The notes under the pieces: generated by a model
Databases searched by the model: none
What the model saw: the letters and a program-made list of their open reading frames with translations, nothing else
Told to the model about the DNA's origin: nothing
Position numbers and translations under genes: made by a program
Shown here: positions 11,732 to 17,882 of the stretch, one piece after another
How the letters are laid out: the number at the start of each line of letters is the position of its first letter
Numbering within the stretch: position 1 is the first letter of the stretch
NCBI GenBank assembly: GCA_963695855.1
Contig: CAVOHZ010000010.1
Coordinates: 416,001-480,000, forward strand
Source of the DNA: an uncultured Nitrososphaerales archaeon
GTDB taxonomy: Archaea > Thermoproteota > Nitrososphaeria > Nitrososphaerales > Nitrososphaeraceae
Direction of reading: 5' to 3'
Length of the DNA: 64,000 nucleotides

Positions 11732-13303
11732 ATGGAAAAAGGTATTATTTTTAATTTCGGAAATAAGTTCTTGATTTCAATTATTTTTCTCTCCTTATTA
11801 ATAGGTGTCCTTGGAAATGGATTGGTTTTGGGTCAAGTATTTGCAAAAGGACATAATCCACAGAATGATGTTGACACAGAAAGCATCGAAATATATCCTC
11901 TTTCATACAAGAAATCGGATGGTAATAATGTTTTTCATAATGACAAGATACTTTCATTAAAATTGCAGGAACAAAAACAAGAGAATACAGATCTCAATAC
12001 ATTATCAAAATCAAAGCAGCAAAAGATTGCTGAAAAAAACTTTGGAGAACAGGAAGATGATGCCATTATCATGAAAGGACCGGTCCATTACGAAGAAAAA
12101 GAAGATTATCAAAAAGACATGAAGAATGAAGATTATGGGTATGAAGGTAAGTACTCCAAGTATACAAGCGATGAAGAGGCAAGGGATGATAGTAACAGAG
12201 ATTCAGACATAGATACAAGCGATGAAGAGGCAAGGGATGATAGTAACAGAGATTCAGACATAGATACAAGCGATGAAGAGGCAAGGGATGATAGTAACAG
12301 AGATTCAGACATAGATACAAGCGATGAAGAGGCAAGGGATGATAGTAACAGAGATTCAGACATAGATACAAGCGATGAAGAGGCAAGGGATGATAGTAAC
12401 AGAGATTCAGACATAGATACAAGCGATGAAGAGGCAAGGGATGATAGTAACAGAGATTCAGACATAGATACAAGCGATGAAGAGGCAAGGGATGATAGTA
12501 ACAGAGATTCAGACATAGATACAAGCGATGAAGAGGCAAGGGATGATAGTAACAGAGATTCAGACATAGATACAAGCGATGAAGAGGCAAGGGATGATAG
12601 TAACAGAGATTCAGACATAGATACAAGCGATGAAGAGGCAAGGGATGATAGTAACAGAAATTCAGACATAGATACAAGCGATGAAGAGGCAAGGGACAGT
12701 AGAGATTTCGTTGATGATTCCAAAGAAAATCACTCCAATATAAATGACAAAAATCAATCAAATATAACTGAAAAATCTAATCAAGAGTTTAAAAAGATTG
12801 AAGAAGATGTAATTGAAAACGAAAATAGTAGACTAATCTCAGAAGCGAGTCAAGAAGAACAAATTTCTTCAGATATACTACCAGCAAATATCAATTCAAA
12901 AAACAAATACCATGGATATGAAATTCTTATCGCAAATGCAGGATTAGATCAATCTATATCAAAAGAAGAAAGAATAGTTCTTGATGCGTCCAATAGTTTC
13001 TCTAAAGACAATTCGATAACAGGATTTAATTGGGAACTAATTGGTGACTCAGATATTGAAATAGATCCTAGCAATCTAGAGGTCTATACAATTGATGTTC
13101 CAAATCACATGAAAGGTAATACTTTGGAATTCCAACTTACTGTAACAAATGATGATGGACTAACAGATAGCGATACAGTAAAAGTATTGATAAATGACGA
13201 ACAGGATGACGATAATGACGAACAGGATGACGATAATGACGAACAAGATGACGATAATGACGAACAAGATGACGATAATGACGAACAAGATGAAAGAAAA
13301 TAA
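11732..13303 (+). CDS. Secreted acidic repeat protein with PKD-like domain
   Basis: Signal/TM; 17-aa repeats; ANAGLDQ..VLDASNS..W..FQLTVTNDDGLTDSDTV; acidic tail. Confidence 0.9.
   Translation: MEKGIIFNFGNKFLISIIFLSLLIGVLGNGLVLGQVFAKGHNPQNDVDTESIEIYPLSYKKSDGNNVFHNDKILSLKLQEQKQENTDLNTLSKSKQQKIAEKNFGEQEDDAIIMKGPVHYEEKEDYQKDMKNEDYGYEGKYSKYTSDEEARDDSNRDSDIDTSDEEARDDSNRDSDIDTSDEEARDDSNRDSDIDTSDEEARDDSNRDSDIDTSDEEARDDSNRDSDIDTSDEEARDDSNRDSDIDTSDEEARDDSNRDSDIDTSDEEARDDSNRDSDIDTSDEEARDDSNRDSDIDTSDEEARDDSNRNSDIDTSDEEARDSRDFVDDSKENHSNINDKNQSNITEKSNQEFKKIEEDVIENENSRLISEASQEEQISSDILPANINSKNKYHGYEILIANAGLDQSISKEERIVLDASNSFSKDNSITGFNWELIGDSDIEIDPSNLEVYTIDVPNHMKGNTLEFQLTVTNDDGLTDSDTVKVLINDEQDDDNDEQDDDNDEQDDDNDEQDDDNDEQDERK
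12162..12696 (+). repeat. 51-bp coding tandem repeat, 10 full copies plus a partial copy
   Basis: Encodes DTSDEEARDDSNRDSDI; copies near-identical. Confidence 0.97.
13193..13293 (+). repeat. 21-bp coding tandem repeat, about 4.8 copies
   Basis: Encodes NDEQDDD. Confidence 0.95.
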
Positions 13304-13378
13304 TTAATCCTAAAACCTCACTTGGAGGTTAATAGGAAAATTTAAATTTTCTATATTTTTTAATTATATCGATAAAAA

Positions 13379-14527
13379 ATTCCCATACTTTATCAAAAAT
13401 ACACTGGATATTATGCGAAACTAGTATTGGAAAATGGTAAATCTTTTTCTGGGACAGGATTTGGTTATCCCATGCCGAGCTCTGGTGAAGTCGTTTTTAA
13501 TACAGGAATGGTTGGATATACTGAGAGTTTAACGGATCCATCTTATAGTGGTCAAATATTATGCATGACCTACCCTCTTGTTGGCAATTATGGAGTCCCA
13601 CAGAAAGACATTTTAGATGAATTTGGTTTACCCAAATTTTTCGAGTCAGAAAGAATACAGGTCAAAGGATTGATAATTCATTCATTATCAAATATAGCAA
13701 GTCATTGGAGTTGTGTAAAAACACTAGATGAATGGTTATATGAAGAAAAAATTCCGGGAATATACGGAGTTGATACAAGAGAACTGACAAAAATAATACG
13801 CCAAAAGGGAGTAATGATGGGAGTTTTATCCGTCTCTGAAAAACCACTTCAAAAAATAGACATATCTCAAATTGTTAAAAATGAGGATTATGACAATAAA
13901 AATTTCATGTCTACAGTAAGTTCCAATGAAATTAGAACGTATGGCAATTCCAACGAAAAGATTATTGTATTATTAGATACAGGAACTAAGTATAGTATTA
14001 TTAGAAATTTACTGAAGAGGGGTTATAGGGTAGTACAACTTCCTTGGAATTCATCGTATGATAAAGTAATATCTTACGATCCAGATGGGGTTGTAATTAG
14101 TAACGGTCCTGGAGATCCAAAGATGTGCAATGCAACAATCGAGACGGCAAAAAAATTGCTAGATAATTCAATTCCAACACTTGGTATATGTCTTGGCAAT
14201 CAGATTTTGGCCCTATCAGCAGGAGCAGACACGTATAAATTAAAATATGGTCACAGGGGACAAAACAAATCATGTATAAATATTAAGAATGAAAATTCCT
14301 ATATCACCAGTCAAAACCATGGATATGGAATAGAAGCCAAAAGTCTAGAAAAGACGGGATTCGAGCCATGGTTTTATAATCCAGATGACAAATCTATAGA
14401 GGGTATAATACATAAAGATAAACCTGCAATAGCCGTACAATTTCACCCAGAGGCATCACCAGGACCTTTTGATTGTACATTTGTTTTTGATAAATTTAAA
14501 GAAATTATTAATTTAAATAAGAGATAA
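13379..14527 (+). CDS. carA: Carbamoyl-phosphate synthase small subunit (start uncertain: ATT 13379, ATA 13385 or TTG 13427)
   Basis: GEVVFNTGMVGY, TDPSY, SNGPGDP, GICLG, QFHPEASPGP. Confidence 0.95.
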   Translation: MPILYQKYTGYYAKLVLENGKSFSGTGFGYPMPSSGEVVFNTGMVGYTESLTDPSYSGQILCMTYPLVGNYGVPQKDILDEFGLPKFFESERIQVKGLIIHSLSNIASHWSCVKTLDEWLYEEKIPGIYGVDTRELTKIIRQKGVMMGVLSVSEKPLQKIDISQIVKNEDYDNKNFMSTVSSNEIRTYGNSNEKIIVLLDTGTKYSIIRNLLKRGYRVVQLPWNSSYDKVISYDPDGVVISNGPGDPKMCNATIETAKKLLDNSIPTLGICLGNQILALSAGADTYKLKYGHRGQNKSCINIKNENSYITSQNHGYGIEAKSLEKTGFEPWFYNPDDKSIEGIIHKDKPAIAVQFHPEASPGPFDCTFVFDKFKEIINLNKR

Positions 14528-14577
14528 AAATTACCATATTAAACCTATATAAAAAAAATGTAAAAATAGAGTGAGAG

Positions 14578-17500
14578 GTGAAAATAATTCCAAGAAATAA
14601 TGATATAAAAAAAGTTGTTCTGTTGGGTAGTGGGGCAATAAAAATCGGAGAAGCAGGCGAAAGTCATTAGAAGATGACCGCTAATTTGATTACTCTGGTT
14701 CACAATGCCTCAAAGCTCTGAAGGAGGAGGAAATTGAAACAGTTCTAATTAATCCCAATATTGCTACTATTCAGACGGATACCAGGTTTTCTGATAAAGT
14801 ATATCTTTTGCCTATAACTCCTGATTATGTTTCCAATATTTTAGAAATTGAAAGACCAGATTCTATAATGCTATCATTCGGGGGACAAACTGCCCTAAAC
14901 TGTGGTACATCATTATTCAAAAACGGAATTCTTGATAAATACGGAATAAAAGTCCTTGGAACACCAATTAACGGAATAGAAAGAACTGAAGATAGACAAC
15001 TTTTCAAAGAGGCCATGCAGACAAGTAATGTTCCTGTATTACCTAGTTCTCCAGCATATTCTGTTGAAGAATCAATTCATATTGCAAAAAAAATTGGTTA
15101 TCCTGTAATCATTAGGGTTGCATACACTCTCGGAGGAAAGGGAGGAGGAGTTGCCTATAACGAATATGAATTACAAGAGATAGTACATAGAGGCCTTTCA
15201 GTCAGTATGACCGGTCAAGTTTTAATAGAAAAATATGTTGGTAATTGGAAACAAATAGAATACGAAGTAATGCGAGATTATAAAGGAAATTCTATAATTG
15301 TTTGCAATATGGAAAATATTTTGGCTATGCGAGTTCATACAGGGGATAACATTGTAGTGGCTCCATCTCAGACTCTTAATAACTACGAATATCATATGTT
15401 GCGTTCTGCAGCGATCAGAGCAACAAAAGAAGTAGGTATTATTGGTGAGTGTAATATTCAGTTTGGACTCGATCCGAAAAAAGAGGAATATTGTGCAATA
15501 GAGATAAATGCAAGACTCTCTAGATCATCGGCACTTGCTAGCAAAGCAACTGGATATCCGCTAGCATATATGGCTGCAAAATTGGGTTTGGGATATTCAC
15601 TAAACGAGTTAGTAAATAAAGTTACCAAGAAAACTACTGCATTTTTTGAACCATCTTTAGATTATGTAGTAGTAAAGATGCCTAGATGGGATTTTAATAA
15701 ATTTGAGAATGTTAACCGTAGACTCGGAACTGCTATGAAATCAGTTGGAGAAGTAATGGCTATTGGAAGAACTTTTGAGGAATCAATTCAAAAAGCAATA
15801 AGAATGTGTGACATTGGAAAGAAAGGACTGGTTGAAAACTATGAATTCAATGAGCCCAACGAAGAAGAGTTAGAAAATATTGAACACGCACTTTTGTATC
15901 CCGATGACAACATCCTTTTTGACGTTGTGAGAGCAATATACAGCGGTATCACCATAGAAAAGATAAATGAATTATCCAGCATAGATCCATGGTTTCTTGT
16001 CAAAATAAAGAACATAATAGACATGGAAAGAAGGTTGAAAAATTCGGGAAATGATTTTGATGAAAGCCTCATAAAAGAAGCTAAACAAGCAGGGTTCTCT
16101 GATATACAATTATCTTCTTATTTAAAATTGGATGAAATAACAGTTAGAAAACTTAGGAAAAAATTTGGAATACAACCAGTCATAAAACAGATTGATACCT
16201 TGGCTGCCGAATGGCCTGCTCAAACTAATTATCTTTATCTTACCTATGGTGGTGATACCGATGATATCAAAATTAGAAAGAAAGATAAGAATGCAATAGT
16301 TCTGGGAGCAGGTCCGTATAGAATTGGAAGTAGTGTAGAATTTGATTGGGGTACTGTTAATATGGTTAGAGGTTTGAAAGAAAATGGAATAAATGAAGTA
16401 TCAATAATAAACTGTAATCCCGAAACAGTTTCTACAGACTTTGATATTTCTGACCGGTTATACTTTGAGGAGATTACCTTTGAAAGAGTTATGGATATTT
16501 ATGAAAAAGAAAATGATGCTGAAATAGTAACCTGTGTGGGCGGTCAAACTGCTAACAATCTAACGTTAAAACTGGCCCAAAATGGAGCAAAAATAATAGG
16601 AACAGAAAGCAAAGATGTGGACAGGGCTGAAGACAGAGAAAAGTTTGGGAAATTACTTGATTCATTAAAGATTAAACAGCCTCCTTGGAAAAAATTTACA
16701 AGTCTAGATGAGGCAATTATCTTTTCTCAAGAGGTAGGATATCCCGTGCTTGTGCGACCGTCATATGTATTAAGTGGAGCAGCAATGAAGGTAGTATGGG
16801 ATGACAAACAGTTGGAAATATTTATAGAAAATGCCACAGAGGTCAGCCCGGATCATCCAATAGTTATTAGTAAGTTCTTTCAAGATGCTGCAGAAGTAGA
16901 GGTGGATGGAGTAAGCGGGAAAGACAAAATAATTATTGGATCCATTATAGAACACATAGACAACGCCGGAATACATTCAGGTGATGCGATGATGTGTATA
17001 CCTCCATGGAGATTAAATAGGGATATAATGGATACAATAACAGGCTATTCAAATAAAATAGTCAAATCTCTCAATGTCATTGGACCATTTAACATTCAGT
17101 TTCTTGTAAAGAATGACGAAGTACTTGTAATCGAGGCAAATATCAGGGCATCAAGGTCAATGCCTTTTGTTTCTAAATATGTAGGGATAAATCTGATGAA
17201 TCTTGCCGCAAAAGCGATGTTAGGTAAACCTCTACCAGAGATAAAGGATGTATGGTTGAAAACCAGCGGCTTTGGTATTAAAGTACCTCAATTCTCTTTT
17301 ATGCAACTAGAAGGTGCCGATATAGTTTTAGGTGTAGAGATGCATTCTACTGGAGAAGTTGCGTGTTTTGGAACAAGCTTTTATGATGCTCTAAGTAAAG
17401 CCTTCCTAGCCGCAGGATATTCGCTGCCGTTACGTGGAACTTCTTTAATCACAATAGGAGGCCAAAAAAATAAGGAAAAATCACTTCCTCTTCTGTCTTT

Positions 17501-17882
17501 GATTTCGTCAATGGAATTTAATATTTTAGCGACAGAACATACTGCTGACTTTTTGGAAAATAATGGTTTTAACGAAGTCCAAAGGGTTTATAAAATAAGT
17601 GAGCCTGACAGGAAACCAAACATCACAGAATTACTGTATGATCATAAAATTGATTTTATCATAAATATTCCTGCAACTGTAACTGTGGAAAAATATTTGG
17701 ATATGTTAAATGATGAATACCATATAAGGAGGAAAGCGGTCGAGATGGGTATTCCGGTAATGACAACTATTGAGGCAGCAATATCGTTTGTAAAAACGTT
17801 ACAATGGCTCAAAAGCAATGCTCCAACAATAGTTCCATTGAAGAATTACTTAAAAGAAAACTCAATCAGTGAAAAAAATTAG
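14578..17882 (+). CDS. carB: Carbamoyl-phosphate synthase large subunit, split by a 23-nt intron (join 14578..14661,14685..17882)
   Basis: Exon 1 PRNNDIKKVVLLGSGAIKIGEAGE joins exon 2 FDYSGSQCLKALKEE..NPNIATIQTD, which is in frame with ORF 14808..17882 (two ATP-grasp domains plus MGS-like domain). Confidence 0.93.
14662..14684 (+). other. Putative BHB-type mRNA intron (23 nt)
   Basis: AGTCATTAGAAGATGACCGCTAA; central helix GGCG/CGCU, 3-nt bulges AAA and AAU, intron stem GUCAUU/GAUGAC; canonical cuts restore the frame. Confidence 0.88.

Follow-up and report, generated by a model that had tools for sequence, protein, structure and literature searches.

How does a soil archaeon of the ammonia-oxidiser type make the large subunit of carbamoyl-phosphate synthase (CPS) from a gene whose reading frame is broken near its start? 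The window analysed here is a 64,000-nucleotide stretch of contig C10; the genome, 3.55 Mb in size and 99.9% complete, has its nearest named relatives among the Nitrososphaeraceae. In the window, carA is followed by carB in two pieces that are separated by 23 nucleotides (nt) with an in-frame TAG. The original prediction, made from the letters alone, read these 23 nt as a bulge-helix-bulge (BHB) mRNA intron excised by the tRNA-splicing endonuclease. Our follow-up leaves little doubt that the insert is such an intron and that it is spliced: we observed the BHB structure, conservation of the site, covariation, an enforced stop codon within the insert and an RNA that lacks the 23 nt, and the genome carries genes for RtcB and the EndA family. 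No second carB lies elsewhere in the genome, the gene being present as a single copy. The parts of the locus are as follows.

13379..14527, + strand: carA, CPS small subunit (TIGR01368 above cut-off), with a probable ATT start at 13379
14575..14581, + strand: Shine-Dalgarno-like GAGGTGA before carB (by sequence; relatives have a similar motif at similar spacing)
14587..14661, + strand: carB exon 1, 25 codons from what is most likely a near-cognate ATT start (TIGR01369 positions 2-24)
14643..14650, + strand: 5' strand of the exon-exon stem, partner 14693-14700 (fold; conserved register; synonymous constraint)
14656..14662, + strand: 5' strand of the central helix (14656-14659) followed by the first bulge of 3 nt (14660-14662), with cleavage predicted after 14661 (fold; covariation in 126 distinct introns)
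14662..14684, + strand: 23-nt BHB intron with stem 14663-14668/14673-14678, TAG 14668-14670 and helix strand 14679-14682 (fold; missing from RNA contig X5; conserved site)
14683..14685, + strand: second bulge of 3 nt, with cleavage predicted after 14684 (fold; relatives' introns)
14685..17882, + strand: carB exon 2, 1065 codons plus stop (open frame; TIGR01369 positions 25-1051, 1388 bits)

Removal of the insert restores the protein. Only deletions of 23 nt that begin at 14660, 14661 or 14662 gave a CarB of 1090 amino acids (aa) with the conserved motif intact, as predicted; because of an AA repeat at the boundary these three deletions give identical sequence, so that RNA alone cannot fix the cut site. 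In each bulge, archaeal tRNA-splicing endonuclease cleaves behind the second base, a rule that places the intron at 14662-14684. Exon 1 and the 3' end of the intron form a central helix of 4 bp at the site, which also has two 3-nt bulges on opposite strands and both flanking helices, the intron stem and the exon-exon stem; cleavage at the positions set by the rule restores the frame of the conserved protein. The coordinates first given for the S-H-TAG break, the central helix, the bulges, the intron stem with its AGAA loop and the exon-exon stem all proved right. Only the closing pair did not hold as the preferred one: the minimum-free-energy structure pairs C14654-G14688 and A14655-U14687, making the second bulge 4 nt, whereas the predicted A14655-U14686, on which a 3-nt second bulge depends, is a weaker alternative. 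The fold has z = -2.39, with 1 of 200 shuffles folding equally well. As the immediate closing pair is mismatched in 8 of 78 distinct relatives, the carB motif is a slightly relaxed BHB.

When the whole genome was scanned for BHB motifs that, once removed, fuse two coding halves, the carB site ranked top of 213 filtered candidates; the scan required strict geometry and long open reading frames (ORFs), and other introns are possible beyond these settings. The runner-ups have weaker folds. The second candidate joins two separate genes beside endA (rps17e-like and ThiS-like, judged from ORFs), and the third has no counterpart in 24 genomes of the genus except short chance matches. Across 13200-15000, Rfam gave no match at E up to 1 and thus no known cis-regulatory RNA family.

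Same-site inserts with compensatory changes, which the original prediction proposed to look for in carB across the Nitrososphaerota, were found in large number. In 121 of the 130 loci read, both flanks were resolvable by motif; 116 of these hold an insert at the exact codon boundary and 5 do not. These 116 rows are partly redundant and comprise 78 distinct introns, and four of the nine motif-unresolved rows were later shown to hold 22-nt inserts. Across the order, 265 of 301 genomes matched a junction pattern. Among the matches listed, the insert occurs in families f1, f2, f3, f4, f8, f10, f11, f13 and f14, and all carB rows are intronless in f6, f7, f9, f12, f16, f18 and f19. The insert is present in 26 of the 45 f13 genomes. 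For the window's family, 6 of 201 genomes showed an intronless junction, all of them from one other genus, and in the window's own genus none of 25 did. The unpublished genomes G267 and G276 contribute solely to the order-wide match count and to this tally of intronless junctions. The exon-1 protein sequence is conserved in relatives. Pairing is kept as well: the inner three pairs of the central helix are intact in all 78 distinct introns (the outer pair is G-A in 14), the first four pairs of the intron stem are 98% paired compared with 1-41% for slid partners and show U-A, C-G and U-G exchanges, and the exon-exon stem pairs in the register 14643-14650/14693-14700 in 77 of 78 distinct relatives. 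As a separate observation, no carB match was obtained with this query in six genomes of the f10 genus g22 that are 95-100% complete (G149, G152, G177, G237, G096 and G174), and sister genomes have carB with or without the intron; loss of carB in the six is possible.

Outside the order, the insert pattern matched in one of 255 genomes. In the order of this genome, a second one within the phylum, 3 of 26 genomes carry an insert at the same site; their CarB is of the GQAAE type, and both sides of the central helix have changed, giving GCGG/CCGC. A metagenome scan with the GQAAE-type pattern, which allowed any 12-42 bases and left inserts above 42 nt outside its reach, gave 91 matches, of which 85 were examined; 26 of these lie in carB, and all 26 combine BHB geometry with an in-frame stop. 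Two metagenome clades nest on starred branches among NCBI-named Thermoplasmata archaeon CarB at 82-85% identity and, with the taxon taken from these related proteins, are probably Thermoplasmata-like. Viral contigs gave two pattern matches, neither of them in carB by the motif test.

In the pooled set of 126 distinct introns, insert lengths range from 17 to 52 nt and are spread over all three frames (41/43/42), and central-helix types include GGCG/CGYH, GGTG/CACY, GCGG/CCGC, GCCG/CGGC and GCTG/CAGC. Every one of the 41 in-frame introns contains a stop codon. A stop in the frame of exon 1 is present in 117 of the 126 introns, compared with 40.7 expected by shuffling; for the two remaining frames the counts are 30 and 31. 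The exon-1-frame stop is supplied by TAA (47), TAG (36) and TGA (34) alike. Selection for a stop within the intron suggests that ribosomes meet an unspliced pool. Structure-forming synonymous sites in the exons are constrained only in genes that have the intron: GGC encodes Gly-2 in 115 of 119 intron-bearing versus 4 of 37 intronless genes, GGA encodes Gly-5 in 111 of 119 versus 6 of 37, and TAC encodes Tyr+3 in 113 of 119 versus 15 of 37; for Gly-2, independent pairs gave the same direction in 5.4 of 6 (median p 0.06), the long-branch rows L169 and L192 being excluded. No homing-endonuclease ORF was found in any resolved insert (longest 52 nt). Likewise, no long endonuclease-bearing insert was found among 15 rechecked genomes, of which seven have a resolvable carB 5' end, six with inserts of 32-40 nt and one without; the remaining genomes had no or a partial carB match with the query used.

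RNA was searched for the spliced junction, as the original prediction had proposed. In each of the 23 listed runs, fewer than half of the words of the query were present, and four RNA runs (X5, X6, X7 and X12) were examined as contigs. In X5, a soil metatranscriptome, a 390-nt contig across 14573-14943 is 97% identical to the window (9 differences) and lacks exactly 23 nt at the carB site, with a contig depth of 14.2 of 17.3. Among the alleles listed, this contig has 8 of 8 in common with genome G019 and 6 of 8 with G014, and the DNA of each of these genomes carries a 23-nt intron, identical in the case of G019. Spliced RNA thus exists at the level of a contig whose alleles match an intron-bearing genome. 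At the protein level, excerpts of PMC13674081 and its supplement give CarB of Nitrososphaera viennensis as a 1022-aa annotation without a RefSeq tag and report its detection with 26 and 40 peptides. The same excerpts report carB RNA as down under DMPP (log2 -0.90) and ATU (-1.15), with no significant change of CarB protein in a time series.

Of the enzymes that such splicing would need, the genome encodes an intact 184-aa EndA subunit, whose motifs we take to be of the catalytic type, and an intact RtcB, and it has intron-bearing tRNA genes; its cbf5 is uninterrupted. A second EndA gene, of the structural type, is located as follows.

Contig C3, about 189545-190167 (L132 1190-1812): EndA structural-subunit gene, frame break at A11 (A-run L132 1430-1440)

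The N- and C-terminal Pfam halves of this gene are split by the frame break at the A11 run. Among 21 resolved genomes of the genus, the gene is broken in 9, always at an A9-A11 run, and in frame in 12; the recurrence at A-runs points to transcriptional slippage or -1 frameshifting as candidates rather than to one bad assembly, and a homopolymer assembly error is the candidate alternative. Directly upstream of the catalytic endA we noted a PhoU-like or DUF47-like gene (L131 582-1226) that, judged by eye, may be slightly shortened in places.

Judged from geometry and gene content, EndA very probably cuts and RtcB very probably ligates this message, gating the output of the only CarB. The carAB transcript would fold exon 1, insert and exon 2 into helix-bulge-helix-bulge-helix, a tRNA splicing endonuclease of the (alpha-beta)2 type would cut after 14661 and 14684, and RtcB would join the carB exons to yield the 1090-aa CarB. 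An unspliced message would be stopped within the intron, so that splicing would act as an on/off gate for CarB. The peptide made from it is short, as predicted, and counts 27 aa from ATT 14587 in place of the roughly 30 aa first given.

This count depends on where carB begins. The start is most likely ATT 14587 and not GTG 14578, because GTG 14578 sits inside the GAGGTGA Shine-Dalgarno sequence and Met1 of E. coli CarB aligns to ATT 14587, five bases behind GAGGTGA. In relatives, the homologous start codon is often ATT, ATA, CTG, TTT, TCG or GCG. No ATG, GTG or TTG lies near the carB start in 43 of 60 intron-bearing rows, compared with 6 of 37 intronless rows, and of 8 independent pairs 5.2 agreed with this direction while 0.1 went against it (median p 0.06). 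In genus g35, all six intronless carB genes start canonically and their intron-bearing sisters at TCG or GCG, which is suggestive of a reversion of non-canonical starts where the intron was lost. Apparent TCG, GCG and ACG starts behind a strong Shine-Dalgarno sequence were also noted in carB of L103, L113, L115, L117, L123, L127, L130 and the f10 loci L164-L179; with N-C-G replacing N-T-G, unusual initiation and C-to-U editing are candidate explanations. A related observation concerns carA, in which a conserved K-I-P N-terminal extension lies upstream of the called TTG (13427) with no canonical start in relatives, and in which ATT 13379 recurs in most of 13 resolved relatives, often behind a Shine-Dalgarno-like motif. 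ATT 13379 is the likely carA initiator, and near-cognate initiation may apply to both subunits of CPS. A genome-wide survey of non-canonical starts by a Shine-Dalgarno heuristic was uninformative, with 12 of 1757 ORFs qualifying.

Whether the splicing of carB also regulates CarB is a separate matter. Ribosomes translating exon 1 would open up the BHB motif, so that a weak start and an early stop could favour cutting; a near-cognate exon-1 start would lower ribosome traffic and let the motif fold and be cut. We hold this effect of start and stop tentatively, as a possibility that falls somewhat short of probable, and are more doubtful still that the gate is regulatory or nutrient-responsive. 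Unlikely, in our estimate, is the broadest version, an ancient cross-phylum switch on carbamoyl-phosphate synthase built from the near-cognate start, the enforced in-intron stop and the BHB motif. In such a switch, ribosomes and the tRNA splicing endonuclease would compete at the 5' end of carB mRNA, and the spliced fraction would tie the supply of arginine and pyrimidines to the state of translation and the capacity for tRNA processing, making it an archaeal counterpart of HAC1/XBP1 splicing; in the window's genus, endonuclease supply may in addition be limited by slippage in the structural-subunit gene.

Several points weigh against a spliced and functionally relevant carB intron. The RNA support is one near-identical assembled contig, not reads, without strand or level, and the 23-nt gap in X5 could stem from reverse transcriptase skipping the hairpin at the AA repeat. 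More distant contigs in X6 and X12 pass from 14661 straight into exon-2 sequence and may come from relatives that lack the intron. An unspliced contig of 152 nt in X12 is identical to the window (pre-mRNA or DNA), and the X7 contigs do not reach the site. With the EndA structural gene out of frame at A11, intact machinery is deduced rather than read off. For N. viennensis, the intron is surmised from the truncated annotation, not from its DNA; the peptides in the PMC13674081 excerpts derive from an exon-2-only database entry and include no junction peptide, and in another proteome CarB was not found, according to supplement excerpts (PMC12542715). Because related genomes do not count as independent, the shuffle comparisons and raw ratios given above overstate significance; on independent pairs the link between intron and start codon is not significant, and many intron-bearing lineages retain an ATG or TTG start. 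Finally, a quick CarB tree of 97 rows, without the long-branch rows L169 and L192, gave 13 changes of intron state, 8 of them forced by starred branches. Gain and loss are indistinguishable in such quick trees; read as repeated loss, the changes imply that the intron is dispensable.

We incline slightly to the account that the intron is spliced and has no regulatory role. It would be a tolerated relic that is efficiently removed and whose precise loss is rare, with the stop as a fail-safe and the odd starts as lineage drift. This account concerns the regulatory part only, and a neutral reading of the persistence of the intron is at least as likely as regulation. At least 8 forced gains or losses and the occurrence of intron-bearing and intronless sisters within one genus agree with it, as do non-canonical starts in 6 of 37 intronless rows and probably in carA, and no arginine-rich leader signature was seen in exon 1. 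Less easily explained by a relic are the retention of one site across two phyla, the enforcement of the stop with all three stop codons and the tendency of starts to be canonical after intron loss, as in the 6 of 6 intronless g35 genes compared with their TCG/GCG sisters.

A hairpin behind a stop codon is reminiscent of ribosomal bypass signals, and the insert could in principle be skipped by translational recoding (bypass, frameshift or readthrough) on uncut RNA, with the contig lacking the insert explained by a reverse-transcriptase skip. We regard recoding as very improbable, given that insert lengths fall in all three frames, that pairing between exon and insert covaries in the exact 4-bp plus 3-nt EndA geometry and that RNA without the insert exists. 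Least probable of all is a carB pseudogene, a mis-assembly or a truncated CarB from the internal TTG 14808 with exon 1 irrelevant, for which the 1024-aa ORF of gene callers and the CarB not found in one N. viennensis proteome (excerpts of PMC12542715) could be cited, against the same insert site in more than 100 loci from independent assemblies, a conserved exon-1 protein, a fully open exon 2, carB as the sole copy in the genome and CarB detected in the other proteome (excerpts of PMC13674081).

A spliced BHB intron in carB explains a systematic error in the annotation of CarB, which is truncated, pseudogenised or falsely started, with effects on metabolic models and proteome searches. That gene callers would misread the gene had been foreseen: among 120 database homologues, the N-terminus is falsely read in the frame of exon 2 in 117, two proteins are truncated and one is of the intact intronless type. 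Publicly deposited proteins in which exon 1 and the intron are read in the exon-2 frame, giving a false N-terminus, were noted as P0002-P0120, P0121, P0123, P0126 and P0243. A frame-breaking intron in the sole gene of a central enzyme occurs in most Nitrososphaeraceae genomes examined, in many members of the order's other families and in Thermoplasmata-like archaea, and the splicing of core-metabolic mRNAs in archaea would be far more widespread than two published cases suggest. Whether archaeal mRNA introns regulate anything becomes testable in cultured ammonia oxidisers, for which public RNA-seq and proteomes already exist for nitrification-inhibitor and carbon-limitation treatments. Elsewhere in the window, a 523-aa ORF (11732-13303) upstream of carA was seen to contain two acidic repeats, one a long and perfect tandem repeat of 16 residues and the other at the C-terminus; its product is probably a secreted or surface protein.

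No report of a carB intron was found in the literature searched, with most subscription journals and bioRxiv supplements outside the reach of that search, and none appears in the excerpts of PMC12397907, PMC13149111, PMC3082918 and one 2026 preprint. According to excerpts of a 2023 review, the archaeal mRNAs known to be spliced by the tRNA endonuclease number two, with more expected (PMC10485636), and cbf5 and HVO_1309 are the only archaeal mRNA cases named in the excerpts of PMC7714728 and PMC10485636. One of the closest known systems is the BHB intron in cbf5 pre-mRNA of Desulfurococcales and Sulfolobales (PMC2738675, citing Watanabe 2002 and Yoshinari 2006), and the carB intron has the testable features of a cbf5-type BHB mRNA intron. 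In the excerpted PMC2738675, the cbf5 intron is likewise short (16-44 nt in Table 1 versus 17-52 nt for carB), lies within coding sequence, has BHB-like boundaries and shares lineage-specific losses and mis-annotation with carB; it was proposed there as a negative regulator, and Yokobori 2009 (the same paper) mentions predicted introns in other genes from two cited works. The cbf5 case concerns an RNA-modifying enzyme in two orders, whereas carB is the gene of a core metabolic enzyme and its intron extends across the Nitrososphaerales, a second order and Thermoplasmata-like CarB. HVO_1309 of Haloferax volcanii, according to excerpts of PMC7714728 and PMC10485636, is also an mRNA substrate of the archaeal splicing endonuclease, with spliced RNA reported as the main product; its intron differs in lying in the 5' untranslated region, in leaving the reading frame unbroken and in being cut by an alpha2-type enzyme. 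Archaeal tRNA and rRNA BHB introns have the same 4-bp helix, two 3-nt bulges and predicted cut positions; unlike them, the carB intron has a helix built from codons, with synonymous sites carrying the structure, and unlike mobile rRNA-type BHB introns the carB inserts have no endonuclease ORF. In the splicing of HAC1 and XBP1, too, an endonuclease and a tRNA ligase remove a short intron and restore the frame (excerpts of PMC13149111). The nuclease there is IRE1, the signal is another one, and regulation is proven for HAC1 and XBP1 but not for carB, so that the comparison is one of analogy, not of membership.
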